From a virus (lineage: Duplodnaviria; Caudoviricetes): a stretch of 40,892 bases of DNA. Positions within the stretch are counted from its first letter, which is position 1; the number at the start of each line of letters is the position of its first letter. The notes beneath the pieces were generated by a model that made no database searches, was not told where the DNA came from, and saw only the letters and a list, made by a program, of their open reading frames with translations. Made by a program: the position numbers and the translations under genes. The stretch spans positions 1 to 40,892 of IMG/VR virus record IMGVR_UViG_3300011438_000019, one strand, 5' to 3'. Shown piece after piece: positions 4,320 to 40,810 of the stretch.

Positions 4320-4480
4320 TTCCTCCTTTTCTCCAGAGTACGTACTTTCTTGTCCAGGTCATGGAGCTTCCCATAGATATGGAAGAGCCGAATGTGGAGA
4401 GACTGTAGAGCCACAAAGATCTGGATGATGGTCAGCTCTCTGGGAAACCTTTTGACCTTCTTAATTTTCTTCTTCTTCAT
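4316..4480 (-). CDS. small basic protein (54 aa) with N-terminal RFPR
   Basis: Not in ORF track. MKKKKIKKVKRFPRELTIIQIF...TLEKRRK*; AGGAGG RBS; stop overlaps next start. Confidence 0.65.
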   Translation of the reverse strand: MKKKKIKKVKRFPRELTIIQIFVALQSLHIRLFHIYGKLHDLDKKVRTLEKRRK

Positions 4481-4922
4481 AGTCTTCCTCCTGATCGTCT
4501 TCCGTGTCTACTTCCTTCCAGCCCTGCTCCAGAAGGAGGCCTTCCAGATGGTCGTGGATCCGGAGGAAGGTACGGATGGAATTGATCTCCTGTCCCTGAA
4601 AAATACTGTTCCGCAGGAGCTTCAATAAAGCTACCGCATCACTGAGCTTGAAGTGAAGCAGAACGTCGTTAGCAGGCTCGTTCTCCTTCACGATAGTGAG
4701 ATGGTAGAAGGACTCTGGCAGATACATCAGGTAGGGAGCGAACCTTCCAAGCGCGACCCTTCTCGCCTTGCTGTTCTCCCTGGAAGTCCGGAACCGCCGA
4801 CACTTGCACTTCGGGGCAGTACATCGCCCTCGGCAAGCTTCTCCAGTGTGATGCTTGGAGTGATGCTTGGAGTGATGGCCGCACTCACAGATGTGCGATG
4901 GCAGAGTCAGTTCGCTCGTCAT
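4461..4922 (-). CDS. hypothetical protein with Cys/His-rich N-terminal domain
   Basis: CECGH..H...C..C....CKC pattern; acidic C-terminus. Confidence 0.65.
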   Translation of the reverse strand: MTSELTLPSHICECGHHSKHHSKHHTGEACRGRCTAPKCKCRRFRTSRENSKARRVALGRFAPYLMYLPESFYHLTIVKENEPANDVLLHFKLSDAVALLKLLRNSIFQGQEINSIRTFLRIHDHLEGLLLEQGWKEVDTEDDQEEDYEEEEN

Positions 4923-5257
4923 TTTGTCCTCTCTTTCAGATCCTTCATCCCTAGGGGATGCATGGTCATGGATACCACCTTCTCGGCGAAACGACGAGAC
5001 ACTTCCGCTGTAAGATACATCAGCTCCTCGACGGAACCATCGCCTGCGTCACAGATGATGCGATCCGCAGACTCGACTGCCTGCTGGATGGCACGCTGAC
5101 GGACTCTTTCGTTGTACTGCCCCGGATAGTCTTCCTCATCCGAGATGGTGTCCACAGCATGGACTTGCTTCTGATGGATAGGGCATTTCTCCGGGCTGCA
5201 TTCTCCATTCTGGAGATGGATCCGGCAGTCACACCGATAGCGTACGATGCGGATCAT
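4919..5257 (-). CDS. hypothetical protein
   Basis: CDC...CPIH; ATGA-coupled. Confidence 0.6.
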   Translation of the reverse strand: MIRIVRYRCDCRIHLQNGECSPEKCPIHQKQVHAVDTISDEEDYPGQYNERVRQRAIQQAVESADRIICDAGDGSVEELMYLTAEVSRRFAEKVVSMTMHPLGMKDLKERTK

Positions 5258-5790
5258 GGCATCAACCTTTCTTCGCCGACTTCTTCCGTGGCATCTGGGA
5301 TTTCGTCCTTGTTGTCTTCTTCCTCTTCGTCCTCCACTCGCTTCTTCTGCGACGTGAAGGCTTTGGTGAAGAAGGACAGGCGATCGTGGAAGCGGACAGC
5401 TCTCCGGACGTTGGAGAAACCGACGTCTCCGCTCGTGGAAATGTTCTCCAAGAGCATCAAGACTTCCTCAACCTCGACCGCGCTGAAGAAGGCCAGCATC
5501 GCATCGTGCGGGATCGGGACGCCAGCCAGAGTAAACTGTTCGTCTTCTGACAGGACAGTTAGGTCGCTAGATTTGAGGTCTTCGAGTTCCTTCGCGTGCT
5601 CCTTCTTCAGTTTGTCCAAGGCTCTAGCTCTGACGAGCCTGTCTTCATCTTTGAGAATCTTGAAATAGGTGATGAACTTATCAACGTCATCACCTATCTG
5701 GAACCGACGGTTCAGGCGATCAAATTTCGCCGCCTTTCCCCGCAGTTCTTTGAGCTCTGCCACTTTAATTCTCTCTGTGATTCTCTTCAT
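5254..5790 (-). CDS. hypothetical protein
   Basis: Helical, acidic tail; AGGAG RBS. Confidence 0.65.
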   Translation of the reverse strand: MKRITERIKVAELKELRGKAAKFDRLNRRFQIGDDVDKFITYFKILKDEDRLVRARALDKLKKEHAKELEDLKSSDLTVLSEDEQFTLAGVPIPHDAMLAFFSAVEVEEVLMLLENISTSGDVGFSNVRRAVRFHDRLSFFTKAFTSQKKRVEDEEEEDNKDEIPDATEEVGEERLMP

Positions 5791-6013
5791 GCTTCTTCTC
5801 CTTTGGAAGAATGGATGTCTTGATGACTTTCCACATTCGGATTAGAACGAGCAGATAGGCCAGACCCGACGCGTACATCATGAGCCCGATTTCCCGTGAT
5901 GGCGAACGAGCCTGGAAGTCCCACAATTGAGCGAAGATCGAGGCGAGCGCACATAGCGCGATCAGACAGAGAAGCCATTCCACGATCTTACGGAAGCGTG
6001 ACATCGGCTTCAT
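5765..6013 (-). CDS. small membrane protein (2 TM)
   Basis: Two hydrophobic helices. Confidence 0.55.
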   Translation of the reverse strand: MKPMSRFRKIVEWLLCLIALCALASIFAQLWDFQARSPSREIGLMMYASGLAYLLVLIRMWKVIKTSILPKEKKHEENHREN

Positions 6014-8162: not shown

Positions 8163-10637
8163 TTATCGCTTTGGCTTCTTCTTTCCTTTCCTGGACTCTC
8201 GCACTTGCCTGTCTTCGCTTTCGTTGTAGTGACCATGGACAGCACGGCGTCCCTTTGTAACGATGTCTCCGCGATCCATGCTCTTCTGATCTCGCACACG
8301 ATCAGGAGTCAGCATCGCGTCCCGCTTGTGGTGTAGTCCAGGTTTGCGAGAGATAAGTGTCGCAGCCTCGCGCTTAATCCCAGATGCCACATCACGAGGA
8401 TCGAAGGGGTACGCGGTCTTTCGTCCGCTTGTGCTGGAAGGAACGGATGTCCCACCACGGACGTCTCCCTTTGGAGATCCTCCAGCATCTGGAGCCAGAC
8501 TTGTCCCGCCTCCTTGCGGGAGCATTCCCTTATCTGCCCCTCCACCATCTGCTCCCTTCTCTGGAGCTTGCTGACCCTTCAGGATCTGAGCGTATGCAGC
8601 ATTGACCATCAGCTCCTTCTGAGCGTCTTCTTCCGCGATCTGTTTCTGCTCTTCCTCGTACTCGTAGGACGTGATGCTCAGCTCCCGAGCCGCCATTGTG
8701 GAGGCACGACGGTGGGAGATATGGCTCATAGACTCCTCGAACGCGATGTCCTTGAGCTTCTCGCTCCGGTTCTCTTCGGCGATAGCTGGATACGTGATCT
8801 CGACCTTGACCTCCAGCTTGTCCGGAAGCTTCTTCATTTCCTTGGCACGTTGGAAGACGCGCTCACAGTCCTGCTGGAAGAAGCATTCCATGATGTCCTG
8901 ATAGTCTTCAAAGGTCTTGATATCCGGTTCCGTACCGACAAGAGCTCCCGCCTTCGTTCCAGAGGAGGGGAGACCGAGATACTCTTGAGAAATGCCAGCA
9001 CCGACCGCGGTGATGACCATCAGCATGTCCCAGTCCGCCGTGACATCACCAGCTCCGACTTCAGCTCGGATGCCTTGGAGCTCAGCCGCCTTGTTATGGA
9101 TGAAGAACGATCCCGGAGTCGGCGGAGTGGAGAATTGCGCTCGAGCCGTAGTGACTTCGGTTTCCCCGCCTTCCACGGACACGTCCAGGACGAACAGGTT
9201 CGCCATCTTGTTTCGGATGACGCGGTCTGTGGCAAACTCCTTCACTCGCTTCAGCCAGCCAAGGACTGCAAAGATCTCGCTTCGCCCTCGGACTTCGCCT
9301 GCGACCGTGTTGATCTTCATGTGGTAGAAATGGAGCGATGGAACTTGCCGGATGATGTACTTGATCGTTGGAATCGGCAGGTCTACGAACCATTGATACC
9401 GAGTGGGATACTGCTGATGGAGGTAGAAAATGTTCTCGCAGTCATCCGGGTCAGTGACGACCTCCCAGACAGTGGAGGGGTCGATCTGCCTGACCTTCAA
9501 TCCCCACGGAGCTTCGAAGTAGCGGGGAAACTGCTCGCCGAAGATCACGAGGTCGCGCAGAATCTGCTTCGACCGGATGACCATGCTGTTTCTGCGCCAG
9601 TGTTCGTCGAGGATCCCTTGCGCCTGCTCACGATAGTCCAAGACCTCATCCATCTTCTCGCCTGTCTGCTCATCGGGAACCGTCTTTCCGGTCGCGAGCT
9701 CTGCAGAAATGACGGTAGCCTCGACACCCTTTCCAAGGACGAACTGAGGGATGATCTTGCAGATGCGCTTCGCGATTGGATTGTGCGTCCATGCTTCGAA
9801 CGCTTTGGAGTGCATGTCCAAATAATCGAACCAGTAGAGCTGTTTGCTGTACGGGCCTGACATGAGAGGAAGGAAGTCCATCTCCCTCCCGACTCCTGAG
9901 ACATCTGTGACGACGCCAGCGTTCGCAGCGGCATCATCCAGAGCGAAGCGATCTTGTCCACTATCGAAACTGATCCCGGACTCTTTGATTCCCTTGGACT
10001 CCTTCAGATGCTTGAAGTCCTTGGACTCCTTCAGCCTGTTGAGGAGTGCGACGTCAACCTGCCGGAAGGTACGGACGAGCCTCGGATCGAGCCTGATACC
10101 GATCGGGGTCGCGCTCTCTTCTGCGCCGAGGACAGTCTTCTTGGCGAGAGACACGACGTTTCGCATGACAAGCGAAGACTCTCGCAGACGACGATAGTGA
10201 TTGCTGTGCATGTACTCCGCGATGGTTGGAAAGTGAGCTTCGCGGAACTTGCCCTGCTTCATCTCGTTCATCGTCGAGGTGATCAGCTTGGCATCAATGT
10301 CCACGACGACGGCTTCACGGAGATACTTGATGTGAGTCCCCTGAGCAGATTCATCGATCTTGCCGAGCGCGGTGACTTCCGCCTGCGTTGGTGGGTCAAT
10401 GAGTCCAGGAATGACAGCGAGCGCAGGTTTGATGCGACGCTTGTACTCCTCGATGGAGAAAGAGGATTCCTCCACTGTCAGGAGAGGAGCTTCCTCGTCC
10501 AGATAATCGCCGCCTGTATTGAATCGGTCAACGATGTCCCTCGGCTTCTTCGCCTTCGCGGAAATCGTGCGAAAGGGAAGAGCCTGATGCAGCGAAGGGG
10601 GAGCATTCGTCGGGTTCACTATGTTCGTCGAGCTCAT
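8163..10637 (-). CDS. phage portal protein with long N- and C-terminal extensions
   Basis: 824 aa downstream of terminase; portal-like core (NPIAKRI...FVLGKG; RDLVIFGE; IDPS.V..V.TDPDD; RGRSEI); disordered Gly/Pro-rich tail. Confidence 0.75.
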   Translation of the reverse strand: MSSTNIVNPTNAPPSLHQALPFRTISAKAKKPRDIVDRFNTGGDYLDEEAPLLTVEESSFSIEEYKRRIKPALAVIPGLIDPPTQAEVTALGKIDESAQGTHIKYLREAVVVDIDAKLITSTMNEMKQGKFREAHFPTIAEYMHSNHYRRLRESSLVMRNVVSLAKKTVLGAEESATPIGIRLDPRLVRTFRQVDVALLNRLKESKDFKHLKESKGIKESGISFDSGQDRFALDDAAANAGVVTDVSGVGREMDFLPLMSGPYSKQLYWFDYLDMHSKAFEAWTHNPIAKRICKIIPQFVLGKGVEATVISAELATGKTVPDEQTGEKMDEVLDYREQAQGILDEHWRRNSMVIRSKQILRDLVIFGEQFPRYFEAPWGLKVRQIDPSTVWEVVTDPDDCENIFYLHQQYPTRYQWFVDLPIPTIKYIIRQVPSLHFYHMKINTVAGEVRGRSEIFAVLGWLKRVKEFATDRVIRNKMANLFVLDVSVEGGETEVTTARAQFSTPPTPGSFFIHNKAAELQGIRAEVGAGDVTADWDMLMVITAVGAGISQEYLGLPSSGTKAGALVGTEPDIKTFEDYQDIMECFFQQDCERVFQRAKEMKKLPDKLEVKVEITYPAIAEENRSEKLKDIAFEESMSHISHRRASTMAARELSITSYEYEEEQKQIAEEDAQKELMVNAAYAQILKGQQAPEKGADGGGADKGMLPQGGGTSLAPDAGGSPKGDVRGGTSVPSSTSGRKTAYPFDPRDVASGIKREAATLISRKPGLHHKRDAMLTPDRVRDQKSMDRGDIVTKGRRAVHGHYNESEDRQVRESRKGKKKPKR

Positions 10638-10646: not shown

Positions 10647-10895
10647 CTATCCACTGAATTTCTTGTGGGCCTTCTTTCGGATCTTCTTTGCGACATCTGG
10701 ACGACCTTCACCGTGATGCTTCTGCGCGATCTTCAGCATTCCCGCTTTCTTGTGCTGTTTGGTAAGTTCTTCTTCGGCTTCGTTGGATTCCCGGAGGCGT
10801 CGGCCTTCTCTGACTTCTCGCTTCGCAGCTTCACGGACTCGCCTCACAGAAGTGAGTTCTTGCTGTTGGAAAAATGTCGTGCCCCGATAGCTCAT
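10647..10895 (-). CDS. small basic protein, candidate internal head protein
   Basis: Shares N-terminal leader with 10892..11284; VREA and LRES sites. Confidence 0.6.
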   Translation of the reverse strand: MSYRGTTFFQQQELTSVRRVREAAKREVREGRRLRESNEAEEELTKQHKKAGMLKIAQKHHGEGRPDVAKKIRKKAHKKFSG

Positions 10896-11310: not shown

Positions 11311-11949
11311 TCAATAGGGCGACTTGAAGACGTCGAACGGATCACCTGAGCGTGAGCCTGCTCTGCCAAGCTGCGCGATCGCGAATCCGGGAGCTCGAGT
11401 AGCGACCAGCTTCTGACCTTGGATGTCTTCGTTCATGCACATGTGAACGACGCCGACGACAGCGTCCACCGTGTCGTCGTGGTCACCAAACGGGAAATCG
11501 CCAGCTTCGGCGACGAACCTGCGAAGAGTCGGATGGACAACGAGGACACCGTTCTCCAGGATTCCGCGCAGACGCACTCGTCCAGTCTCAAAATGTGGGG
11601 TCGTGATCTGAGCACGAAAGACTTTGTCTCCAGGAAATTTGACCGGATAGGTTGGAACATCCTTCTCCCACGCTGCCTGACCGAGAGCCCACTGGTAGGC
11701 GTAGTCCTCGATTCCGACCTTCCATGACTTCCAGAACTTGTGCTCTCGAATGATCGCTTTGACCTGCTCAGGAAATGGAATCTGGGCGCGATAGATGTCG
11801 AGCAGGTAGATGAGAGAGGCGACCCGAGCAGCCGTTGCGATGACGAACCAGTCTGCTCGCACCGTCCCATCGGGGTTCATTTTCACTCCGGGGTCTTTCT
11901 CGCTCTTGATGGCGAGGTCTGCGAACTGAACTGGTCTGAGAGTGATCAT
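11311..11949 (-). CDS. terL: terminase large subunit, C-terminal RNase H-like nuclease domain (separate gene)
   Basis: FADLA, GIED, DK..RA, FPFGDHDDTVDA match the acidic catalytic pattern of the TerL nuclease domain; own GGAGG RBS. Confidence 0.85.
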   Translation of the reverse strand: MITLRPVQFADLAIKSEKDPGVKMNPDGTVRADWFVIATAARVASLIYLLDIYRAQIPFPEQVKAIIREHKFWKSWKVGIEDYAYQWALGQAAWEKDVPTYPVKFPGDKVFRAQITTPHFETGRVRLRGILENGVLVVHPTLRRFVAEAGDFPFGDHDDTVDAVVGVVHMCMNEDIQGQKLVATRAPGFAIAQLGRAGSRSGDPFDVFKSPY

Positions 11950-12762
11950 CTAATTCTTGTTCTTCCTCCACCGGATTGCCCGATCGTCAATGTAGAATTC
12001 TGCCGGAGGCTTCACGTTTGTCACAGCATCCACTTGGAAACCATTGTTCCGGAGCCACGCTCCAAGATGAGAATGGAGTTCCTTTGGGCGAGCAGTCAAC
12101 ACGACGACGCGGTATCCTTTTGCCTTCAGATTTCTGACGAGAGTGACGCCAGCCTTCAGCGGCTTCCCGACCTTCGTGATAGGCCATCCCTCTTCGTGGT
12201 ATGCAAGGACTCCGTCGAAGTCCACGCAAGCGGTCTTCTGCTTCGGCTGGACGAGACTCTTCGCCTCTGAAATATGCCCGAGCTTCTTCATCGCACCGAG
12301 TCGGAAAGAGCCTAGACCCTTGCGGTAGTAGACTGCCTCTTTTCCGTTCCGTCTGTCAAATATGATGGTGTGCGCTACTAGTCCGCCTCTCTTCGCCGCT
12401 TGTAGCTTCGACCTGAGCGAAGTGGGATGCATCGTCACCTTGTCATTCTTGCCAGCGACGATGGTCTTGACTTCGACGACATGCTTCCCGACCCGGACGT
12501 CGAACGAGTCTTGATGACTCTCACTGACTTCTCCGCCGAGGGCTTCTGCGACGAGGCGCTCGTTCTCTTTCGTCAGGTCATATTTCTTCTTTGTGTGCGG
12601 AATATGACTGCTCTTTGCAAGGCGAACTCTGACCGACCGTTCTCTCGCGGCTTCATTGAGAACACGATCGGCTTCCTTTCCTCGGAAGACTGTCTGTGGA
12701 GGCTGTGACTCCAGAAGCCGCTGTTCGTAGAGCTCATCACGATCGGAGCCGAGACCGTTCAT
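11950..12762 (-). CDS. PD-(D/E)XK nuclease-like domain fused to HAD-family phosphatase domain
   Basis: ENE...SFDV...VVEVKT, then VDFDGVL / LTAR / KP / YIDDRA (HAD motifs I-IV). Confidence 0.7.
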   Translation of the reverse strand: MNGLGSDRDELYEQRLLESQPPQTVFRGKEADRVLNEAARERSVRVRLAKSSHIPHTKKKYDLTKENERLVAEALGGEVSESHQDSFDVRVGKHVVEVKTIVAGKNDKVTMHPTSLRSKLQAAKRGGLVAHTIIFDRRNGKEAVYYRKGLGSFRLGAMKKLGHISEAKSLVQPKQKTACVDFDGVLAYHEEGWPITKVGKPLKAGVTLVRNLKAKGYRVVVLTARPKELHSHLGAWLRNNGFQVDAVTNVKPPAEFYIDDRAIRWRKNKN

Positions 12763-13358
12763 CGGAGGACCTCCAGAATTGCAGGAATGCTGGATTTCTT
12801 GGCCGGAAAATGAAAGACCGACGGCCAGCCGAGGCGTCTGATCCTTCTGTTTCTCCTTCGATCCTTAGCCTTGTTCAGATGCCACGGCATTCCGTCTATC
12901 TCGATTGCTATTCTCCTCTGTGGGAAAGCGATGTCCACAAAAAGACGACCGACCCGATAGTTCAAGCGGATTCCTTTAATTCCACGACGACAGAGAGAAC
13001 GGAAGATAGACACTTGGACACGGGAAGTTTTGCGACGCACATTTTCACGCAGCGTCTCAGACATCCGGTCAACGAATGACTTGTTTCTCCATTTCTTCTT
13101 AGAAGCTTTGGAGTAGTTCTCGACGTCGGTATTTCTAGCTCTCGAAGAAGTCCAATTTTCTCTGTAGTCCCCTGTCTGCCATAGACGACGCCTGCTTCTG
13201 GACATTTTTGCTATGGCCTGGAGAGAATGCTTCTTTCCTTTCATTCCACCAGAAGAAAGACGGCTTCTCTTCAAAGGGTCTTCCCACGCTCTCTCCATCG
13301 AGCGACTTTGGGACTCACAGTGCTGTTGAGACCTAGCATAAATTCCGCTCGGCATCAC
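12759..13358 (-). CDS. free-standing homing endonuclease, NUMOD3 plus Vsr/DUF559-like domain
   Basis: MKGKKHS...AKMS (NUMOD3); VDIAF...IAIEIDG..WH...D...LGW (Vsr-like). Confidence 0.8.
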   Translation of the reverse strand: MMPSGIYARSQQHCESQSRSMERAWEDPLKRSRLSSGGMKGKKHSLQAIAKMSRSRRRLWQTGDYRENWTSSRARNTDVENYSKASKKKWRNKSFVDRMSETLRENVRRKTSRVQVSIFRSLCRRGIKGIRLNYRVGRLFVDIAFPQRRIAIEIDGMPWHLNKAKDRRRNRRIRRLGWPSVFHFPAKKSSIPAILEVLR

Positions 13359-14566
13359 TGTGCTCCTTCCAAATAGACGTACCCATCTTCAGGGTTAAAA
13401 TACAATTGGTTTGTGTCAAAGAAGGAGAACCACGAGCGATTGAAGATCGCGCCCTCTGCTGCTGAGATCTCGTTCTGCTTCTCCCTATCAAAATAGATAG
13501 AGCCTTGAGCCGCTCGGTCGAGCAGAAGCTCTTTGATTCCCCATCCGAACAGAACAGGCTTTCCACTGTCCGGATCTACGACTGCTCTGCCGTCATTGTC
13601 CACGAGAGGAGTACTCGGCCACAGAACTTTGTAGTCATCGGTGAGCAGCTTGACGTCCACGACCTTTTCTTCACTGCGAAGCTGATTTGGATGGTCTATG
13701 ATGCGATCGCTGTCAGTGATGTACTGCCATCCCTGCTTCATCTGTCCGGGCTTCTCTGGGTCGGGGATCATCGGATATTTGATGATGGCGCGTTCAGCAT
13801 TCGTTTTCCAGAGCGGAGACTGGATCAAAGTATTGTAGAGGTCACGACGATTCTTGCGCGTACCGACCATCGTGTACTTCGTGTAGGACTCACGGAGGTT
13901 CCAGACTGTTCCCCAGAACCAGTTCTCGATGGCGTCCATGCGTTCAACGTTCTTCGTGTTCTCGTCGTCCAGAATGTCATCGCCACCGACTCTGTGGAAG
14001 TGGCCTCCGGTGATGGCTCCAAGGACGCCGACCTTTTCGTAGGTGTAGTCCTTTTCTAGAGAATCCGTTCCAGTTCGTTTGCAGCGAAAATATCCCTTCA
14101 ACCACTCTCTCATGTCCCGAATGTCGCCGAAGTCCCTTGCGAGCCAGACGTTATCTTCAATCGTCTGACGAACCTGACCGCCATACTTGCTCGCCTGCTC
14201 ATCCGTCTTAGCAATTTGAAGGAAGCGTGCATCCACAGACTTGAGACCGCTGCGGATGAAGGACGCGTAGATTTCGTAGAGAGGCAGACCATAGGAAAAG
14301 ATCCACGACTTCCCGTGGTCCCGAGGGGCAAGCTCCAAGAGATATTTGATCATCCAGAGGAGAATCCAGTTCCTCTGGTGCTCTGGCAGTTTGAACCCGA
14401 GGTAGTAGAGAAGAAAAAACTCGGGCGATTTCAAAGTGAGTGCGAATCTGAAGTCAGGCGACAGATATTCTTGAATCAGCGATCGGACTCCATTGACACC
14501 CTTCGCTGCATTAAGCTTCTGTGCCAGTCTCTCCGGGTTGACTTTCGTGTACTTCTTTGCTCGCAC
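13355..14566 (-). CDS. terL: terminase large subunit, N-terminal ATPase domain (separate gene)
   Basis: Walker A APRDHGKS; ITGGHF..VGGDD Walker B; VGTR coupling motif; ends at F..E.QN...GAIF...WF linker. Confidence 0.9.
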   Translation of the reverse strand: MRAKKYTKVNPERLAQKLNAAKGVNGVRSLIQEYLSPDFRFALTLKSPEFFLLYYLGFKLPEHQRNWILLWMIKYLLELAPRDHGKSWIFSYGLPLYEIYASFIRSGLKSVDARFLQIAKTDEQASKYGGQVRQTIEDNVWLARDFGDIRDMREWLKGYFRCKRTGTDSLEKDYTYEKVGVLGAITGGHFHRVGGDDILDDENTKNVERMDAIENWFWGTVWNLRESYTKYTMVGTRKNRRDLYNTLIQSPLWKTNAERAIIKYPMIPDPEKPGQMKQGWQYITDSDRIIDHPNQLRSEEKVVDVKLLTDDYKVLWPSTPLVDNDGRAVVDPDSGKPVLFGWGIKELLLDRAAQGSIYFDREKQNEISAAEGAIFNRSWFSFFDTNQLYFNPEDGYVYLEGAQ

Positions 14567-15185
14567 GAGATGGAAGTCCCTTCTTAGGTTCCGGCGTCAC
14601 ATCTATAACCTGTCCCTGAGCTCTGCTGACCAGCGCATTGACGAACTGGAGGATCATCTCTGGGCCGACGCCGTGCTGCGTGATGTCCGCAATGACGCGG
14701 GACTCCACGACCCCTCCGACCTCTGACTTGGACGCGATGTTCGTCTTGTACTTTCCACGCCCTTTGAGGAAATCCTTCGCTGCGTCGTAGGCAAAGTAGA
14801 TGTCTGGCGACTGCATAGCGTCCTCCACGACACGGACGGCGCGAGGATACAGAGCGTCCAATTGCTTTTCCGTAAGACCAGACCGCTTCTTTGCGTAGTT
14901 CAGATAATAGTTTCGGAAGAGTGGATGGGCACGTCTCCAACGGTAGAAACTGTGCGGAGTGACATGGACGAGCTCGCAGGCTTCCGTGACAGGGACGCCG
15001 TCCACGATGAGGCGAGCCAGCCTCTTCTGCTTCTTCGTGATCTTATTGTAGCCTCGTGGAAGATCCCCTGTAGATACACGGATCTCATATCTCTGTGTCC
15101 GGGTCAGCCCTTTGTCCAGGCCTCTGCGCTTCATCTCATCTTTCGCTAGTCTAGGAAATCTATGGATGCCGTCAGCGCAGAGCAC
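14511..15185 (-). CDS. terminase small subunit-like HTH protein
   Basis: HTH (VTEACELVHVTPHSFYRW); directly upstream of TerL; GGAGG RBS before GTG start. Confidence 0.7.
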   Translation of the reverse strand: MLCADGIHRFPRLAKDEMKRRGLDKGLTRTQRYEIRVSTGDLPRGYNKITKKQKRLARLIVDGVPVTEACELVHVTPHSFYRWRRAHPLFRNYYLNYAKKRSGLTEKQLDALYPRAVRVVEDAMQSPDIYFAYDAAKDFLKGRGKYKTNIASKSEVGGVVESRVIADITQHGVGPEMILQFVNALVSRAQGQVIDVTPEPKKGLPSRASKEVHESQPGETGTEA

Positions 15186-15188
15186 GAG

Positions 15189-28007: not shown

Positions 28008-28023
28008 TAGAATGAAACCCTGC
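28008..28023 (-). promoter_or_regulatory. candidate phage promoter element (GCAGGGTTTCATTCTA)
   Basis: Intergenic, just upstream of an RBS; resembles motifs at 34513 and 40869. Confidence 0.3.
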
Positions 28024-30653
28024 TAGGCTACTAGATCGGTCGGCAGAATGAATTCGGATTTCCCCTTACGCTCAAGCTCTTTCATTGCACCGAGGCTCCG
28101 CCCTACCGAGACGTCAATGTCAAATGGGATTTCGCAGAACCATCCGGTCATCTTCTCAATCCACTTGCGGTCGGTCATGAACTTGTACTTCATCTCTAGA
28201 ACGTCCTGCGCTTCCTTGCGGTAGACGTCCATCGTAATGTCGTCGTGGATGACGATGACGACCTTGCTCTTCATGCGATATTTCTGGAGCCACTTGGACA
28301 TCCGCCACGCTGCCGACCATGTGATATCGCTTGCGTCTCCTTGAATTGGAGTGTTGACCGCCTGACGGAGAGCCTCATGAACGATCTTGTCTTCATCGCT
28401 GTCCACACCGAGGAGCCAGCGACGGCGGCCAAAATAGGAGAGGACGTACTTGTGCTTCCGAACAAACTCTTCGACCTCTTGTCGGTACGCATAGCAGTCG
28501 TCGTACTTGCCGAAGTAGTCGGATATGAACTTCTCCGCTCTCCGGATAGACCATCCCATATCCGCTGCCAGAGCCGGAGCGCCTCTTCCATAGAGAAGCC
28601 CGAATGAGATCATGGATTTCGATGCCGTTCTCTGTTCCTTTGTGACTTTACTCTCCGAGACACCGAAGCCGATGGCCGCTCCCATGCGATGAGGATCCTT
28701 GCCAGCGTTGAACTCCTCGATCATCATGTCGTCTTTGGCCCTGTCCGCAAAGAGCCTCATCTCGATTTGCTTCTCGTCAGAAGCCATTAAGAAATAATCG
28801 TCATTCGTTGGGACGAACTGAGACCGCAGGATGTTGGCAAGACGACCACGCTTCGGCAGGTTCTCGTGGTTCGGGTCAGCACTGGAGACTCGTCCCGTCA
28901 CCTGACCACTGGGACGGTATGTCGTGTGAGTGCGACCATCGAGGCCAGCCCACTTCTGGATTGGCTTGATGTATTTCGAATAGGACGTGGAGTACTCGCC
29001 CATCTGGAGCAGGAGCGTGATGACCTTGCTCTTCTTCTTCGCGTTCAGCTTTTCTAGGACTTCGCGCTCGGTAGAGGGATTGTCTCCGGAGGGTGTGTCC
29101 CAGAGAGGCTCACGATCCATGATCTCAAATACGAGCTCGCGCTTGTTGTCGGTGGAGTTTAGGTTGACTGGCTCTCTGTGACGCTTGACGAGCTCCAGGA
29201 TGCGTTCTTTTGGATTTGCGACCGGACGTTTGTAGCTGTGAACACGCTCCGCCGTCTCCTTGATGAGTTCACGCAGGCGGATCTGCTCGAGCTCCTTGAC
29301 CTCTGGGAACGTTCTCAGCTTGTCTTCTTTCCCCTTGACAATCTTTGGGTACTCTTCCAGGAGCTCTCCGTTGCGCTTCAGGTCTAGCTTCAGGCCAGTA
29401 ATTTCCATCTGTGCCGCTGTCCACAGATGGTACATCAGCGGAAACTTGAACGGATGATTCCACAGATTTTCTTTCTTCAGTTTCTTGTAGAGGTACAAGG
29501 CGAGCCGGAAGTCCGCGATGCAGTCGTTCATATTGTACGGATAGAGAATCTTCGCGGGGATATAGACCATGTTCCCGCCTTCCTCGGGATCCATGATCTT
29601 GTTCTCTCGCTGAAAGGTTCTCATCTCAAGCTCGTATCCACCCATTCCCAGCTTCCAAGCCCAGTCTTTGAGACCGTGTCCTCCTTTGTAGACGTTCAGA
29701 GCGTAGGAGCCGAGGCCAGTGTCCATCCAGTAATTCTTGATCCTGATCTTGTGAAGGACAGCCGTGTAGACGTAGTCATACTTTCCAAAGTGAAGAGCGA
29801 ACTTGATGTCGGGGTCTGTCCACAATTCTCCGACGGCTTCCATCACCTCTTCCGGAGACACTGTGACCTTGACTCCTACACGACCTTGGACAGGGAAACA
29901 GACGGCCGAACGGATGTCCCATGCGAAGCCGACACAGGCAATCTGAGGCTTGATCTCTTTGTTATGCGGAGAGAGCGTGCTGCCTTCGATGTCTGTCGTC
30001 AGGAAAGTCTTCTTCTTGAGCATGTCCACGTATTCTTGGAGCATCTTGCGGTCACGAATATACTCATGAGAGAACTCCTTCCCTTTATGTTTCTTCGGCT
30101 TCCCTAGATTTGACGCAAGTAGTAGCGCATCTCTGAGCATCGCAGTCGTCTGAGGATTTTTGTTCCGCAGAACGTAGGCTGGATGGACTCCGCAAACGTA
30201 GTCGCGTCCATGAGCTCGGAAGACCTGAGCGTTCAGTCTCGTGATCCCACGTTTGTGAAGAATGCTTTCGATGGCGGAGTTCCCAAGGAGAACAACGACC
30301 TTTGGATTGGTCGCTCGGATCTCCCTGAGGATATGAGGACGACAGTGGTCTATCGCGTTTGGAAACTTGGTGAGGTCGTTGTCGGCCGGACGGCATCTGA
30401 CCACGTTGGAGAAGCGGCACTTCTGGAGATCTATGCCAATCGCTTCTATCATCTCCCGTAGAAGCTGACCGGATTCTCCAATGAAGGGATATCCTTCGTC
30501 GTCCTCTTCCCCTCCGGGAGCCTCGCCTATGAAGGACCAGATCGGATCGTCCGAGCCTTCACCGTTCATGATGGGAGTCTCACACTGTTTGTACATCCCA
30601 CATGGACGGCAGAACTCGTCTGGCTCCCGGATGATGTCCAGCTTCACCGTCAT
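28023..30653 (-). CDS. polA: family A DNA polymerase with N-terminal family-4 uracil-DNA glycosylase-like domain and 3'-5' exonuclease
   Basis: UDG: CxxC..C, GEAPG..ED..G.PF.G.SG, NVVRCRP, HPAY. Exo: DIE, GKYD, YN.ND. Pol: TGRVSS.DPN..NLP, D..QIE.R, R...K...FG..YG, NTPIQG.ASD, HDD. Confidence 0.95.
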   Translation of the reverse strand: MTVKLDIIREPDEFCRPCGMYKQCETPIMNGEGSDDPIWSFIGEAPGGEEDDEGYPFIGESGQLLREMIEAIGIDLQKCRFSNVVRCRPADNDLTKFPNAIDHCRPHILREIRATNPKVVVLLGNSAIESILHKRGITRLNAQVFRAHGRDYVCGVHPAYVLRNKNPQTTAMLRDALLLASNLGKPKKHKGKEFSHEYIRDRKMLQEYVDMLKKKTFLTTDIEGSTLSPHNKEIKPQIACVGFAWDIRSAVCFPVQGRVGVKVTVSPEEVMEAVGELWTDPDIKFALHFGKYDYVYTAVLHKIRIKNYWMDTGLGSYALNVYKGGHGLKDWAWKLGMGGYELEMRTFQRENKIMDPEEGGNMVYIPAKILYPYNMNDCIADFRLALYLYKKLKKENLWNHPFKFPLMYHLWTAAQMEITGLKLDLKRNGELLEEYPKIVKGKEDKLRTFPEVKELEQIRLRELIKETAERVHSYKRPVANPKERILELVKRHREPVNLNSTDNKRELVFEIMDREPLWDTPSGDNPSTEREVLEKLNAKKKSKVITLLLQMGEYSTSYSKYIKPIQKWAGLDGRTHTTYRPSGQVTGRVSSADPNHENLPKRGRLANILRSQFVPTNDDYFLMASDEKQIEMRLFADRAKDDMMIEEFNAGKDPHRMGAAIGFGVSESKVTKEQRTASKSMISFGLLYGRGAPALAADMGWSIRRAEKFISDYFGKYDDCYAYRQEVEEFVRKHKYVLSYFGRRRWLLGVDSDEDKIVHEALRQAVNTPIQGDASDITWSAAWRMSKWLQKYRMKSKVVIVIHDDITMDVYRKEAQDVLEMKYKFMTDRKWIEKMTGWFCEIPFDIDVSVGRSLGAMKELERKGKSEFILPTDLVA

Positions 30654-34535: not shown

Positions 34536-35510
34536 TTAAAAGGTCAGGGGGATCTGGCCGTTCGGTAAGAGCTTGGCTGGAGTAGAAGTCGGCCTGAACA
34601 GCATTCTGTTCTTGCCGACGCCGTGCGAGAGTTTCCAGTACTTCCCGAATTCGCAGAGCGAGTGCTCGATGTTCCGCAGCGTGAGCTCTCGGTTAGCGAA
34701 ATACTTGAAATCTAGACCGAGGCGGCTGAAGTGCTTTCGCTGATTGCGCCGAAGATCTTTTATCGCCCTCACCCATTCTTTCCTCTCAGCTCTAAGAGGA
34801 AATATGAGACGGATGCCGACCCTGCATCCCGGACCTGCATTGACCCAGTCGTCCTCGGAGAATGGAATGATCTTCGCATACATCAGATCAATACAGACCT
34901 CGTAGGATATGAACGGGCCGACGCAAGGGATCTCTTGCAGAAGGACGAAGACCTCTTCTAGTGACTTCGCCTTCTTGATCTTCGCATAGAGGAAATGCAG
35001 CATCCGATGGAACTTGTCCAGAACTTCAAAATACTTGTCGAGCTTACTAGCTCCCGCCTTGTTCTGCGGGAGGGTGAGATGAGCATTCGTGAAGACGGAC
35101 TGCGTCTCATGGAGCAGCCGGAGCTCGCCTCGCCATACCATCCCCTCAGATTTCTTCCAAGAGAAAGGAGTAGGGATCCCTACCTTTTCGAAGGTCTCAA
35201 CACGATTGAGAAGGCGGTAGAGAACGATATTCCAGAGCATGTGGACTTCGTCTTGGCGAGTTCTCCAGCTCTTCAGTTTAGTGATGACGTTCTTCATCAG
35301 CCAGATGGTTCCGCGGTCAAGCTCTCGATAGACGTTGGTGAACTTGTAGTCGCGGAGCCACTTGTCCTTCGTCCATGGAGGCGGTTCTTTTTTGATGAAC
35401 CTGCGGAACCAGACCATCTGCCTCTCATAGACGAAGCGGTAGAAGCCAGCGAGATGCTCTTCGATGACTTCTACCTTTGGCATGTTCATCCAAGGCTTGT
35501 CCTTCTTCAT
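34536..35510 (-). CDS. aGPT-Pplase1 / HMUDK-helical family thymine-hypermodification protein (HhH fold)
   Basis: ER......PPPWT.D..L..YKFTNVYRELDRGT; HhH-like IP.VGPF.SYE...D; GPG...G; IEH.LCE..KY. Confidence 0.85.
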   Translation of the reverse strand: MKKDKPWMNMPKVEVIEEHLAGFYRFVYERQMVWFRRFIKKEPPPWTKDKWLRDYKFTNVYRELDRGTIWLMKNVITKLKSWRTRQDEVHMLWNIVLYRLLNRVETFEKVGIPTPFSWKKSEGMVWRGELRLLHETQSVFTNAHLTLPQNKAGASKLDKYFEVLDKFHRMLHFLYAKIKKAKSLEEVFVLLQEIPCVGPFISYEVCIDLMYAKIIPFSEDDWVNAGPGCRVGIRLIFPLRAERKEWVRAIKDLRRNQRKHFSRLGLDFKYFANRELTLRNIEHSLCEFGKYWKLSHGVGKNRMLFRPTSTPAKLLPNGQIPLTF

Positions 35511-35872
35511 GACGGCCTCGAGAAACTGCGTTCCAGACCCTCCACCTGCTCCGCGATCTCCCGGAGCTCCTGAGCCAGCTTGCCTTCCTCTGCGAACTGG
35601 TCGTACATCCCGGCGTCCAGATTCCCTGCGATCTCATTGAGACGTCCAGAGATCTGGAGCTTGTGTTCTTCGTTCTTCCGCTCCTTCTTCTTTCTCCGGC
35701 AGTCGGGGCAGCGGATCGGGAAGGTGTACTTGAACTTCAGGACGAGTTCATCCCACCACGCCTTCTCGCTTTCGAACATCGTCCACGGCTTCTTGCAATC
35801 AATGCAAGGAGGCATGGTGAGCAGAGTGCCACTGTCTCTCGGCTTGTCTCTTCTTCCGGTTCTCTCTTTCAT
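35507..35872 (-). CDS. zinc-ribbon protein (zf-trcl-like)
   Basis: CIDC..W.....E..W.......P.RCPDCR. Confidence 0.75.
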   Translation of the reverse strand: MKERTGRRDKPRDSGTLLTMPPCIDCKKPWTMFESEKAWWDELVLKFKYTFPIRCPDCRRKKKERKNEEHKLQISGRLNEIAGNLDAGMYDQFAEEGKLAQELREIAEQVEGLERSFSRPS

Positions 35873-37302
35873 TATCTACTCCTCAGTCTGGGATGTCGTT
35901 GGAGACGAGGCATCTTTCCCCCACATTCCACGCATCGCAGAATCGGGGTAGAAAAATGTCCCTTCTCAAACGCGACTTCCTTGCCACAGTAGTTACAGAC
36001 TCGCGGATAGTGGAGCACGTTCTTCCATCCACGACGAAAGCATTTGACCTTGATCCTCTCTTGGAAGTTCCCGTACTCCTCCAGAAAGTCCAAGTATGCC
36101 TGCCTCCAAGCGATGTGACGGTAGTGCTGAGCGAGATACTGACCTCGATATTTCTTGATGATCTCAAACAGTCGTTCACATAAGAGACGCGGGTTTCTCA
36201 GATGCTGGACACCCTCCCATTCTTCCTCCCAGATGTGTTTCCTTGCTTTGTAGGGAAGGACAGTGATGCCAGTGACTGCTCCTCGGACGTCGTCTTTCGA
36301 GACGAACAGAGACTCGGCCAGTCGTGGCAGATATTTCCCTGTGCGACCCTTGAGCCAGCTATAGCCGTCGTCCAAGAGCATGATTGTCCCGGAGCTCAGG
36401 TGTTCATAGAAGCGGGAGGATAGCGTAGCGGTCGCCCAGATCCTCTTCCCACCGATATGAATTCCGCAGGCTCCCTTGTTCATCTTCTCTCGCTGCTGAC
36501 CTGGAGGAGCTGCTCCCGGGAAGTGGACTCTCGGCATCATCTCTTGAATCTTGTCAGGCCACTCTCCGTAGATCGCGACTCGTTTGCCCTTGTGGACACC
36601 ATAGTAGTCCGCGAGGTCTCGGACATTGGGATATGACATCCCGGGACGGTGATTGAGAGCATAGACGAGATCCCACTTCGGATTCTTGCGAACCGGAAGG
36701 GGATCTTCAATGCCGAGCATCGCGATAGTGAACGTCTCGACAGGGATGTTGAGCTCTCGGTAGGGACTTCTCCGACCGCCGTAGAGATCCCGGAACGCAT
36801 TCGTCCTGAACGGCTGCGTGAGGATGACCCACGTCTTGTCTTCGGTGAGAGAGAGCGAAGGGGCAAGCCTGTCCCATCCTTGGAGAAAGTAGCTTGGCCC
36901 GAAGCTCTCTGTCGTGAAACAGAAGCCGAGGTCTAGGTCGTGCTGGAAATAGAGCACGAGACCCTTGTACGCTGCGATCTGCATGTTTGCCCTGACCACG
37001 TACGGAAGACCCTCACCTGAGCCATAGAGGAGGCTCTGTGGCCCACATTCCACGACCAGAGCATCCAGACCCTTCACACTTCCGCCTGGAGAGTAGTGGA
37101 GGAGACCGCCGAGCCTGCCCTGCATCTCAGTCAGCTTCGGGATATGACGGTGAGAGATCTCTGTGAGGACGCGTATCTCTACTCCCGACTTGACTAGTCC
37201 CTCCCAGAGCTTCACACGCATCTTCGTTCCACCTGCTCCAGCCCATCCGACCTCTGGAATCAGGTGGAGAAGCTGTCCGTACTTGATCCAGCCGAGTGTC
37301 AT
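35872..37302 (-). CDS. GT-B glycosyltransferase, T4 DNA beta-glucosyltransferase-like, with C-terminal zinc ribbon
   Basis: IYGEW...F.G...LSSRFYEHLSSGTIMLLD resembles the nucleotide-sugar-binding segment of T4 BGT-like enzymes; CNYC/CVEC; start moved to 37302 (ATGA overlap). Confidence 0.65.
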   Translation of the reverse strand: MTLGWIKYGQLLHLIPEVGWAGAGGTKMRVKLWEGLVKSGVEIRVLTEISHRHIPKLTEMQGRLGGLLHYSPGGSVKGLDALVVECGPQSLLYGSGEGLPYVVRANMQIAAYKGLVLYFQHDLDLGFCFTTESFGPSYFLQGWDRLAPSLSLTEDKTWVILTQPFRTNAFRDLYGGRRSPYRELNIPVETFTIAMLGIEDPLPVRKNPKWDLVYALNHRPGMSYPNVRDLADYYGVHKGKRVAIYGEWPDKIQEMMPRVHFPGAAPPGQQREKMNKGACGIHIGGKRIWATATLSSRFYEHLSSGTIMLLDDGYSWLKGRTGKYLPRLAESLFVSKDDVRGAVTGITVLPYKARKHIWEEEWEGVQHLRNPRLLCERLFEIIKKYRGQYLAQHYRHIAWRQAYLDFLEEYGNFQERIKVKCFRRGWKNVLHYPRVCNYCGKEVAFEKGHFSTPILRCVECGGKMPRLQRHPRLRSR

Positions 37303-37610
37303 TTTCTCTTCTTCCCAGCCTGTTTCTTTTCGGCCCTCTCTCGAGCCTTGAGCGCCGTGGCAAGGTCTTCGTATTTCTCGACCGTCAGGCGGATGCAATT
37401 TGAGACTTCCGGGTGGATGACCAGCGTACCATCTGGGGAGGAGACCTGAACAAAGTACGGATCGTTTCCTTTGCTCTCTGAGATGCGGATGAGCCGTTTA
37501 TCTTCACCGACTCCGATTTCGATGGCGATACGATCCGCATCTCCTATGACCGTAGCGTTACGACCTTTCCACGGATTGATGCTATTGAAATTTTGCAGTT
37601 CGATGTTCAT
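37299..37610 (-). CDS. hypothetical protein
   Basis: ATGA-coupled; GGAG RBS. Confidence 0.6.
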   Translation of the reverse strand: MNIELQNFNSINPWKGRNATVIGDADRIAIEIGVGEDKRLIRISESKGNDPYFVQVSSPDGTLVIHPEVSNCIRLTVEKYEDLATALKARERAEKKQAGKKRK

Positions 37611-38209: not shown

Positions 38210-38231
38210 TTCCTGTCTCCTTATCGGTTCT

Positions 38232-38266: not shown

Positions 38267-38313
38267 CAGATTGAGCGATGCAGATTCACTCAGACGGTGC
38301 CACGATTTCGGCT

Positions 38314-39534
38314 CTAGTCTTCGCTCCTCTGCTTCGAACGGATCTTCTTGAAGGCGATGCGCATCTTCTTGCCGAGGAACTCGGCCTTGCCGATGAAGTC
38401 GAACTTGCCCTTGCCCTTCGACTGCCAATCGGCGGTCTTGAGACCGATCTCCTTCAGCTTGTACGCCTTGCCGAGCAGGAGCCGCACGCCGAAGCCCTTG
38501 TCGCGATTCGCTTTCGTGAACCGGACGACTCGACGTCCTCCGATGAGGACGAAGAACTTGTTCGGACCACGCTTTGAGATCTCGCCTTTGAGCTTCTCGT
38601 AACGACTCTTCGCCAGGACTGCCTTGACCGCGGAGGAGTATCCCTTCTTGACCACCTTCTCTTCCTTCGCAGGCTTGGCTTCCTTCTCTTCCCGATGCTT
38701 CCGGCCCTTCTTCTTCTTGTGTTTCTTCACGTCGCTATCCTCCTCCTCACGACGTGCCTTCATGACAGCTTTGCAGTTCGGGGCTTCGATGCAGCGCTGA
38801 CACTCCGGAACGTCGGGGTCATTGTACTTGCCGAAGCAGTCCTCCACTCCGGCCGGAATCGGCGTAGACGGAGCCCGAGGTTTGTACTTGTCGGTGTCGA
38901 TCTGGACGAGGCCCCCTTCGGCCTCGTCCTCGTCTTCATCTTCATCCTCGTCTTCGTCTTCGTCGCCGTCCTCTTCGTCCTCGTCTTCGGACTCTTCATC
39001 TTCGTCTTCGTCCTCCGACTTGGATTTCTTCTTTTTCTTTTTCTTGGACTTGGGCTCGTCTTCGTCCTCGTCTTCCTCTTCCTCGCCCTCATCCTCGTCT
39101 TCGTCCTCATCCTCATCTTCGTCCTTGGACTTTTTCTTCTTTTTCTTTTTGGACTTGGGCTCGTCCTCATCTTCGTCCTCATCTTCTTCCTCGCCCTCGT
39201 CCTCTTCCTCCTCCCCGTCCTCATCCTCGTCTTCGTCTTCGTCCTTGGATTTCTTTTTCTTTTTCTTGGACTTGGGCTTTTCGTCCTCGTCCTCATCCGA
39301 GTCCTCTTCTTCGGAGTCTTCGTCCTCATCCTCCTCAGATTTGTCCTCGTCTTCGTCGCCGTCTTCGGACTCGTCGTCCTCATCCTCGTCGGCGTCACCT
39401 TCCTCCTCGTCCTCGTCTTCATCCTCGGAAGAGGACTCGTCTTCGTCCTCGTCTTCGCGAGAATGCTTGCCCTTCTTTTGCTTGTTCTTCTTTTTCTTGA
39501 TGCCCTTCTCCTTCAGCTTCTTCTTCTTTTTCAT
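38314..39534 (-). CDS. highly acidic/basic disordered protein with Cys motif and basic folded C-terminal domain
   Basis: Start moved to MKKKKKL (39534, ATGA overlap); long D/E + K-block region; CFG...ECQRC....C. Confidence 0.75.
   Translation of the reverse strand: MKKKKKLKEKGIKKKKNKQKKGKHSREDEDEDESSSEDEDEDEEEGDADEDEDDESEDGDEDEDKSEEDEDEDSEEEDSDEDEDEKPKSKKKKKKSKDEDEDEDEDGEEEEDEGEEEDEDEDEDEPKSKKKKKKKSKDEDEDEDEDEDEGEEEEDEDEDEPKSKKKKKKKSKSEDEDEDEESEDEDEEDGDEDEDEDEDEDEDEAEGGLVQIDTDKYKPRAPSTPIPAGVEDCFGKYNDPDVPECQRCIEAPNCKAVMKARREEEDSDVKKHKKKKGRKHREEKEAKPAKEEKVVKKGYSSAVKAVLAKSRYEKLKGEISKRGPNKFFVLIGGRRVVRFTKANRDKGFGVRLLLGKAYKLKEIGLKTADWQSKGKGKFDFIGKAEFLGKKMRIAFKKIRSKQRSED
38920..39460 (-). repeat. 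coding low-complexity repeat: D/E tracts with three PKSK(6-7)SK blocks
   Basis: Directly visible; same unit as in SSB tail. Confidence 0.9.
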
Positions 39535-40130
39535 GCGGACTTTCCTCCATGGAGTAGATGACTTACTCTCCGGATCTGTCGGATACTCCTCCTCATCTTC
39601 GAGGGTGAGATCCTGAGCACGCTCCGGATATGACGTGCTCGAACTCGAAACTGCTTCCATCCGGGAACTCGCTGGCCCTGTGACCTCAGTTTGTTCTTCC
39701 GACAGAAGTCGCGCCAAGCGAATTCAATTACTTGCTCGTCAGGTTCGACGAGCATTTGAAGCAGACGAAATACCTCCGCGTCAAGGTGCGGACGGAATTC
39801 TTCCGCCTTGCTGAGGAGATACTCCCGCGAGTCAGGGACGACATCTGGAATGGAAAGAGCCTCCAATAGTTCTATCTCCGTGCCTTGTCTCTTCTTCTGA
39901 CTGCTGAACCGGATCATCTTCTTGAGACGATTGTACCACGCTCGTTTGAAATATCGGGCGAAGTACATCCCGCCTTCCGGAAAAGACTGGCAGCACTTCA
40001 CTAGAACAAGGAGGCCTTCCGCTTCTAGATCTTCTCTCGACCTGCGGAAGTCGCCCAGAATGCTGTACTTCCTCGCCGTCCAGCGGATGAGACCGCGGAA
40101 CCGACGTAGTGCTACTGTGATGTCATACAT
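39531..40130 (-). CDS. second phage sigma70-like factor
   Basis: LI...ARKY......EDLEAEG.L.L..C...F.....FARYF.....NRL...IR (region-2-like); C-terminal HTH-like segment. Confidence 0.7.
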   Translation of the reverse strand: MYDITVALRRFRGLIRWTARKYSILGDFRRSREDLEAEGLLVLVKCCQSFPEGGMYFARYFKRAWYNRLKKMIRFSSQKKRQGTEIELLEALSIPDVVPDSREYLLSKAEEFRPHLDAEVFRLLQMLVEPDEQVIEFAWRDFCRKNKLRSQGQRVPGWKQFRVRARHIRSVLRISPSKMRRSIRQIRRVSHLLHGGKSA

Positions 40131-40152
40131 GAGCGACTCCCGGTCTCAGCTT

Positions 40153-40533
40153 TCACTTCTTCATCTTGCGTTTGAGCCGTGGGAAACGACGGAGCCCTTT
40201 TCGCAATCGTGGAAAGCGGAGACGCGGGAATCTTTTGATCGCCGCGCTCGCCATCGGTCTGGTCTCCTTTCTCTTCGGTTGGGGATGGACGAAGCTCCAT
40301 TCGACGCGGTATTTTCCGCGAGAGTTTTTAGGACTTCTTGCGCCTCGACTTCCTTCCTTTTCCACGACGACGAACCACCTTCCTCGGGCGGCGTCGTGGA
40401 ATTCTTTTATGAGCTTTACTTTTGGGTCGAGGGCTAGGATACGCTTTGCGTAGGAACTTCTCGGCTCGGAGGATCCTTCGAGGGAAACTTTCTTCTCCGA
40501 CGAGGAACGTGCATCTTGTACATCTGATCTCAT
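40153..40533 (-). CDS. basic protein ending in three RFPRL repeats
   Basis: GGAGG RBS at 40533, but 206-nt overlap with 40328..40810, so the true start may be further downstream (e.g. MASAAIK). Confidence 0.55.
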   Translation of the reverse strand: MRSDVQDARSSSEKKVSLEGSSEPRSSYAKRILALDPKVKLIKEFHDAARGRWFVVVEKEGSRGARSPKNSRGKYRVEWSFVHPQPKRKETRPMASAAIKRFPRLRFPRLRKGLRRFPRLKRKMKK

Positions 40534-40810
40534 TCGGTCCCTCCACGATCATCCGTCCAATCTTGCAGTGACAGACTGATGACGGGACATCTCTGGGAAA
40601 GCGGAGAGGTCTCGGCCAGCGTTTGACGAGCCTCGGTGTCCTGATCGCGATGTTGCCGAACGGCCATTCTTCGCGCTCATAGCCTCGGTCTATATTCCAG
40701 ACCTCAGCCCACGTCGGCTTCATCTTGTAGATCTCGCCTGAAAAGAGATACACCTTATGGACGACTCGCTTCCCGGGAAATAGTTCTTGATGCGCTGTCT
40801 GATGATCCAT
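40328..40810 (-). CDS. basic protein with zinc-ribbon motif
   Basis: AGGAG RBS; CHC...CTRC; Arg/Lys-rich tail. Confidence 0.55.
   Translation of the reverse strand: MDHQTAHQELFPGKRVVHKVYLFSGEIYKMKPTWAEVWNIDRGYEREEWPFGNIAIRTPRLVKRWPRPLRFPRDVPSSVCHCKIGRMIVEGPNEIRCTRCTFLVGEESFPRRILRAEKFLRKAYPSPRPKSKAHKRIPRRRPRKVVRRRGKGRKSRRKKS

Follow-up and report, generated by a model that had tools for sequence, protein, structure and literature searches.

The window analysed here, a stretch of 40,892 nucleotides (positions 1 to 40,892 of IMG/VR virus record IMGVR_UViG_3300011438_000019; Duplodnaviria, Caudoviricetes), is a fragment of a tailed phage that encodes a portal, a split terminase, an SbcCD-like nuclease, RecA/UvsX, a single-stranded DNA-binding protein (SSB), a family A polymerase, a thymidylate-synthase-like protein and HMUDK_hel genes. 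Seven of its genes encode the tetrapeptide RFPR. This tag is real and clade-wide, as indicated by its enrichment, its conservation at the peptide level, its terminal position and its strict Arg-aromatic-Pro-Arg pattern, and its annotated carriers act on DNA. Judging from the sequences, we give about even weight to the reading that RFPR is a docking signal for a pocket on one hub protein located on newly replicated phage DNA. The docking or addressing role put forward in the original prediction is thereby partly supported and stays the preferred reading.

RFPR is enriched, terminal and conserved at the peptide level

The window set comprised 71 curated minus-strand genes (13,683 aa). RFPR was present in 7 of them compared to 0.197 expected (Poisson p 1.9e-9) and ranked first among all tetrapeptides. 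In block shuffles (2000 at every one of five block sizes, the smallest being 8 aa) the maximum was 3 proteins, and the lowest p value of a best tetrapeptide in 200 shuffled proteomes was 3.5e-8, still above that of RFPR. These values bear out the original prediction, made from this sequence alone, that well under one copy would be expected by chance. Our six-frame scan also agreed with its count of nine in-frame copies in seven genes with varied codons, all on the minus strand. The five non-coding frames of the window held 3 copies compared to a mean of 1.88 in 100 codon shuffles, which corresponds to chance level. The single out-of-frame copy reported earlier does occur on the minus strand at 10556-10567, but two plus-strand copies (9158 and 24457) had been missed.

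Records G001-G012 were fetched for comparison. G010 overlaps G002, G011 overlaps G003 and G007 repeats G004; G012, whose clade membership was not shown, was set aside, and nine phages remained, the window included. Protein records point to contigs of about 100 kb in this clade. A purpose-written simple gene caller applied to G000-G006, G008 and G009 yielded 591 genes (118,318 aa) with 70 RFPR copies, compared to 1.0 expected. Only 1 copy was found in 391,787 aa from 75 unrelated viral loci (2.6 expected) and 6 in 330,823 aa from 80 metagenome loci (2.5 expected). With one representative per family across the nine phages, RFPR was present in 25 of 354 families versus 0.49 expected (p 7e-34).

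The coding strands of the clade set contain 87 copies. Apart from the 70 in called genes, 11-12 are in frame with genes missed by the caller, and the remaining 5-6 are out of frame. Every codon for Arg (six), Phe (two) and Pro (four) is used, and this variety, together with the frame bias, confirms that conservation acts on the peptide and is not a DNA repeat. We therefore see virtually no room for a DNA-level element or a compositional artefact. Such an artefact is conceivable in that a sequence coding for Ser/Thr-Arg-Lys-Ser reads RFPR when reverse-complemented; nine antisense copies occur in the clade set, and most of the 92 matches of a tandem-pattern scan had no clade homology (5 loci matched clade proteins, while the remainder, the uncertain locus G012 apart, had no clade match and look like antisense or repeat readings). 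However, 81 or 82 of the 87 coding-strand copies are in frame, every synonymous codon is used, and the shuffles never came near the observed count. The artefact and DNA-element reading is refuted by frame bias and codon variety.

The tag is located at protein ends, as had been proposed. Among the 70 clade copies, 60 lie within 25 aa of an end versus 24.9 expected, and in proteins of at least 150 aa this applies to 39 of 47 copies versus 9.7 expected. It is found as early as residues 2-4 and as the last four residues, three copies ending at the C-terminal carboxylate. In one predicted model it lies within an unstructured N-terminus (pLDDT <50 for residues 1-14). With its neighbouring positions the motif reads [IPV]-x-R-F-P-R-[LETY]. 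Substitution of Arg by Lys is almost absent, whereas Phe can give way to Tyr, His or Trp: compared to 70 RFPR, the clade proteins contain 0 KFPR, 1 RFPK, 7 RYPR, 6 RHPR and 3 RWPR, and RGPR is absent from all 591. In the three best-sampled families the flanks have K/R fractions of 0.17-0.25 and a D/E fraction of 0.15, compared to 0.17 and 0.13 in untagged termini. Where copies occur in tandem, 18 of 26 spacings are 5-8 residues.

Clade RecAs largely retain the tag. Among the best 120 of 5178 matches of the protein search, 71 were at least 45% identical, after which identity dropped to about 35%. Of these 71 clade RecAs, which are 45-62% identical, 58 have RFPR among their first 32 residues and four more carry RHPR, RWPR or RYPR, whereas none of the 49 more distant RecAs among these 120 has RFPR. 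The expectation that orthologues keep the tag and distant RecAs lack it thus held. Of the nine clade RecAs devoid of the tag, four appear to be truncated, as their sequences begin within the domain; five apparently full-length proteins from one subclade (P0053, P0061, P0066-68) look like real losses. In 66 aligned RecAs, R6, F7, P8 and R9 are conserved at 92, 86, 92 and 92%, compared to less than 50% in neighbouring columns. A quick tree was computed from 74 rows after removal of the first 45 residues and of rows shorter than 330 aa; in it, tagged rows span the whole clade and untagged rows are nested among them. For the terminase small subunit (TerS), 34 of 37 homologues have RFPR, 35 when RYPR is counted, and the other two look truncated. 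Metallopeptidase homologues carry RFPR in 38 of 56 cases (39 counting a variant), in variable tails. The profiles used for these two families contained the motif and may favour tagged matches, though the domains dominate the scores. Metallopeptidase homologues of the window protein 22037..22531 also often end in [KR][IV][GKH], even where RFPR is lost. A metagenome scan with the RecA alignment recovered distant RecAs only, a scan with the portal found nothing, and a single weak, unrelated match came from a genome scan with TerS. A search for contigs of the untagged RecA subclade yielded none. No cultured relative was found, the best RecA being 31-35% identical and the capsid giving one weak match.

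Copies in the window and the proteins that carry them

The first copy (4439..4450) occupies residues 11-14 of the 54-aa orphan 4316..4480, for which no orthologue was found beyond RFPR itself. The TerS-like protein 14511..15185 (phrog_2538, E 1e-4) has the tag at residues 9-12 (15150..15161), and the 164-aa PhageMetallopep protein 22037..22531 (PF18894) at residues 156-159 (22055..22066). In the adjacent orphan 22528..22896, RFPR is found at residues 5-8 (22873..22884), and a variant RHPR near the C-terminus (22579..22590) is followed by a beta-clamp-like QFEMF; its positional counterparts in G001 and G009 have RFPR at both ends. RecA/UvsX (24656..25738, PF00154) is tagged at residues 6-9 (25712..25723). 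The N-terminal copies truly lie inside these proteins, which the original prediction had made dependent on the absence of downstream start sites: GGAG/GAGG sites precede the starts used for RecA, TerS and 4316..4480, and TerS homologues share the beginning of the window protein. No Shine-Dalgarno (SD) site precedes 22528..22896, which has an ATGA-overlap start and can be aligned to two positional counterparts with RFPR likewise at their start (weak tblastn match, E 0.26).

RHPR also occurs at the C-terminus of the modification-cluster gene 35872..37302 (35887..35898), as noted earlier, and is retained in the G010 orthologue, which ends with RHPR and RWPR. The label glycosyltransferase given to this gene (as 35872..37398) found no confirmation in Pfam, PHROGs, NCBIfam or PDB sequence searches, and a proposed RFFPR variant at 7346 was rejected for lack of support. 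In 40328..40810, RWPR-xx-RFPR (40592..40621, with RFPR at 40592-40603) is internal, at residues 64-73 ahead of a Cys cluster. All four orthologues have one or two R[FYW]PR at the same place, and the RWPR (40610) is retained as R[YW]PR in four of four.

This gene is overlapped in the +1 frame by 40153..40533, at whose C-terminus three RFPR copies are clustered (40177-40188, 40207-40218 and 40222-40233). The triple site had been recognised before, but with a start at 40174; its true span is 40177-40233. The overlapping frame is uninterrupted and can be aligned across G001, G003 and G010, where it holds 2-3 RFPR copies; it is missing in G006. An internal SD site with ATG at 40254 would yield a 33-aa peptide holding all three copies of the window, and in G001, G003 and G010 an internal SD+ATG is likewise located just upstream of the tag cluster. 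Since the frame is conserved and internal starts are present, the frame could give rise to a long product as well as to a peptide of 28-43 aa. The product of this conserved overlapping gene also carries VxWxF. G006 has a single open reading frame (ORF) with a faintly similar segment, so that a frameshift product is possible.

In the called genes of the clade, the tag was present in RecA (8/8), the FtsK-like protein (4/4), the metallopeptidase (5/7), HMUDK_hel (2/6) and TerS (5/6, the sixth having it upstream of the called start). The portal tail is tagged in three of five phages; the portal lies outside the capsid/tail block. Other carriers are an endonuclease VII-like protein, a PDDEXK nuclease, an AP2-ended nuclease, a weakly Dam-like methyltransferase, two 5-hmdU DNA kinases and a SAP-domain protein. 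Several orphan carriers are small and have 2-4 copies, often at both ends. A tagged protein encoded ahead of DnaB (G001 46817..47467) has a predicted helical fold (pTM 0.48) with no clear structural match (best Z 5.9; T4 gp59 at rank 50 with Z 3.9). The ESM Atlas gave no usable match for two candidate proteins, and a tandem-tag profile gave nothing significant against the PDB. The tag was absent from UvsY-like (0/9), thymidylate-synthase-like (0/7) and SbcC/D (0/6) proteins as well as from the terminase large subunit, HU-like and sigma-like proteins. In the capsid/tail block it was found in 0 of 50 genes (G009) and 1 of 48 (G001, an endonuclease VII-like insert).

Possible functions of the tag

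By the features tested, RFPR appears to fall outside the clamp-binding motif (CBM), APIM, ligase-motif, T4 capsid-targeting and AT-hook classes. The beta-clamp motif (QL[S/D]LF, QΦx[L/M]x[F/L]; PMC11139829, cited in part) is likewise short and sits in the disordered ends of many DNA-acting proteins that are unrelated to one another, and one family here, HMUDK_hel, alternates or fuses RFPR with a CBM-type hexamer. Its window member ends in QIPLTF (34539..34556, minus strand; HMUDK_hel/aGPT-Pplase), a QxxLxF end of this type is found in four of six called genes of the family, and this hexamer position and RFPR are fused in the G001 and G005 proteins. QxxLF/QxxMF ends are also found in two small tagged proteins. 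At position 4 of the clamp motif, L/M precedes the first Arg in 28 of 62 RecA copies, while TerS and metallopeptidase mostly have R/H/K/Q. RFPR differs from the clamp motif by its invariant Pro-Arg and by its absence from the polymerase and 5'-exonuclease. The beta-clamp pocket also takes motifs without Gln, for example APIM, which binds PCNA and weakly the beta clamp (PMC11139829, cited in part). With APIM ([K/R][F/Y/W][LIVA][LIVA][K/R]) the tag shares the Arg and aromatic start and the terminal place, but K is not used, and positions 3-5 are Pro-Arg followed mostly by Leu/Glu/Thr/Tyr instead of [LIVA][LIVA][K/R]. The OB motif of ATP-dependent DNA ligases (LIG1 R871-F872-x-R874) has the same tetrapeptide, similar flanks (LRFPRF) and the same F/H exchange. 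It is part of a folded ligase domain, whereas the clade tag is found in variable free tails of non-ligases, at either end and often repeated. One RHPR of G006 is a true ligase motif, the sole such case. AT-hooks have an Arg/Pro tetrapeptide core with Gly and basic flanks, bind the minor groove and are repeated on unrelated DNA-acting proteins. RFPR has an aromatic residue in place of Gly, a different order and flanks that are not uniformly basic (K/R 0.17-0.25).

A short address common to unrelated phage proteins is known from the T4 capsid targeting sequence and the gp21 L/I-X-E cleavage motif (PMC9026906, cited in part). These mark head proteins and are cut after Glu, whereas RFPR avoids capsid/tail proteins. 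A second peptide of the clade, [RK]LRE[AS], is found in portal N-termini, the N-terminus of the major capsid protein, the protease/scaffold and small head-block ORFs (8163..10637 at about residue 150 and 10647..10895 in the window; G001 14144-18021; G009 34742-39242). RLRE is present in 15 of 354 families versus 1.7 expected, and the peptide would fit an L-x-E prohead-protease site like that of T4 gp21 (PMC9026906, cited in part). No paper on the RFPR tag was found in the literature searched, judged by titles and abstract openings, with supplements and subscription journals outside the scope.

The tag moves between N- and C-termini of unrelated proteins, four residues suffice, and both Arg and the Pro are kept, which suggests ligand-like behaviour towards one binding site. 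In the docking model the two Arg would pair with acidic residues while Phe-Pro would fill a hydrophobic pocket. One copy might be enough on oligomers such as RecA, portal and FtsK, whereas 2-4 are present on many carriers that are small or monomeric. In this way the tag would gather proteins for recombination, junction resolution, base modification and the initiation of packaging behind the fork on the phage chromosome, and it would bring mobile nucleases and methyltransferases that enter the genome to the same place.

The leading named candidate for the hub is the host beta clamp, bound via a non-canonical motif, which we consider doubtful overall. Five records each were scanned for a phage clamp with PF00712 and PF00705 (no match, controls matched), and PF09116 gave none either, in this case without a control match; CheckV rates the records as 22-68% complete, and a clamp that has diverged could escape. 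No clamp loader was found among the clade proteins scanned, the records being incomplete. Failing a phage clamp in these records, the host would have to supply any clamp that served as the hub. The next candidates are the acidic scaffold-like protein 38314..39534, the phage SSB or another host protein. The untagged 38314..39534 (minus strand) has a long acidic/basic disordered region, a Cys cluster and a predicted MotA-CTD/YjbR-like double-wing domain, and is conserved in four of four records covering the region. The predicted domain matched 2a1v with Z 7.3 (root-mean-square deviation 3.3 over 97 aa) and MotA (6k4y) with Z 7.2; the top four matches are all YjbR/MotA-type, at middling Z scores of 6.5-7.3, and nothing ties the protein to RFPR. 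The same lack of a tie applies to the untagged SSB-like protein 26074..27300 (minus strand; phrog_1192), which has a long acidic tail. Both proteins have very long D/E tracts interrupted by Lys runs, and each of the two domains of 38314..39534 (the Cys cluster and the predicted MotA-CTD/YjbR-like end) is found as a separate ORF in G003 and G006 as well.

Several observations weigh against docking on a hub, and on a clamp in particular. The classic clamp clients are untagged, namely polymerase (0/9), 5'-exonuclease (0/8), SSB (0/9), DnaB (0/2) and primase (0/2). RFPR fails both the beta-clamp and the APIM consensus, and Gln stands at position 1 of the clamp motif, five residues ahead of the hexamer Phe, in only 2 of 62 RecA, 0 of 39 metallopeptidase and 2 of 37 TerS copies; the fused HMUDK_hel ends alone show this feature. 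Copies in tandem, mostly 5-8 residues apart, lie too close together to reach two pockets far from each other, and this spacing suits DNA well. In places the tag can be dispensed with, as 17 of 56 metallopeptidases and the five RecAs of one subclade lack it, and so do the portal and HNH-AP2 protein of the window itself. The scarcity of the tag in the capsid/tail block reaches no more than borderline significance (Fisher p 0.055 and 0.045). Some half of the 26 tagged families lack annotation, so that a role in acting on DNA holds for the annotated carriers only. As a separate observation, nine of nine clade polymerases (28023..30653 in the window) share the C-terminal sequence F-x-x-P-x-x-[FL], which may be a second docking motif.

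Since RFPR is the DNA-contacting motif of ATP-dependent ligases, the main rival is a direct DNA hook, an explanation that we consider unlikely. Here Phe would wedge into the minor groove or stack on a modified base while the Arg grip the backbone, and the affinity of many enzymes for phage DNA would be raised as by AT-hooks on chromatin proteins. The ligase OB-domain RFPR, which the original prediction had not weighed, provides a structural precedent, as its Phe enters the minor groove and its last Arg touches DNA (PMC9256674 and PMC6344480, both cited in part). The tag tolerates the same F/H exchange, its carriers act on DNA, the clade encodes hmU-type modification enzymes, tandem copies are closely spaced and some carriers are little more than tag repeats. 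However, the ligase motif is held in a folded domain at the nick with R871 paired to Asp, while the tag sits in free tails whose flanks are often acidic, and three copies end at the C-terminal carboxylate. Modification gene sets vary among clade members and the tag does not, and the mixed-charge flanks fit a defined protein pocket better than charge-driven DNA binding. A further reading, which we regard as rather doubtful, takes RFPR for a portable signal that localises proteins to a DNA compartment built by the phage. A scaffold such as 38314..39534 or the SSB with its acidic tail would coat or condense the chromosome, multi-RFPR mini-proteins would cross-link it, and only tagged proteins would be admitted. 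Improbable, in our view, is a site for Arg-directed modification or a degradation or protection signal (kinase, methyl- or ADP-ribosyltransferase, protease adaptor) timing the activity or turnover of DNA-acting proteins. The near absence of Lys in place of Arg and the terminal, unstructured location are consistent with it, and [RK]LRE[AS] in head proteins indicates that peptide-level processing signals exist in the clade. On the other hand, N- and C-terminal use is interchangeable, Pfam/PHROG scans gave no clade-wide kinase or transferase candidate, and such signalling is made less likely by the copies that end their protein. Protease cleavage after the last Arg is impossible for these three copies.

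Other features of the clade and significance of the tag

The terminase large subunit of the window is split into two ORFs (11311..14566), and the genes inserted between them differ among several clade members. In G006, a permuted tmRNA gene (L188 13395-13627; RF04321, 85 bits) lies between the small and large terminase subunits and is a possible clue to the host. A tRNA-like element of the window (32016-32090, minus strand) has a 4-base anticodon left unassigned by ARAGORN and no Rfam match. An acyl carrier protein (23121..23393, PF00550), also present in G002, is located near modification or recombination genes. Head-block proteins on the minus strands of L167 (3483-4295) and L185 (17739-18905) have an ATLF-like domain and a DRAT-like ADP-ribosyltransferase domain according to Pfam.

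Throughout a deep phage clade, one tetrapeptide marks about 25 families with no relation to each other. Few short linear motifs, among them clamp motifs and the SSB tail, organise an entire sub-proteome of a bacterium or phage. RFPR can be read directly from sequence; it labels orphan genes as probable DNA-acting proteins and points to a putative hub or compartment. If the compartment reading is true, mobile nucleases and methyltransferases must gain the tag to reach phage DNA, and RFPR would amount to a linear 'nuclear localisation signal' of a phage of 100 kb in which neither a shell nor a clamp was detected. If the DNA hook is true, it would represent a new minimal DNA-binding element. On either reading, RFPR could serve as a portable tag.

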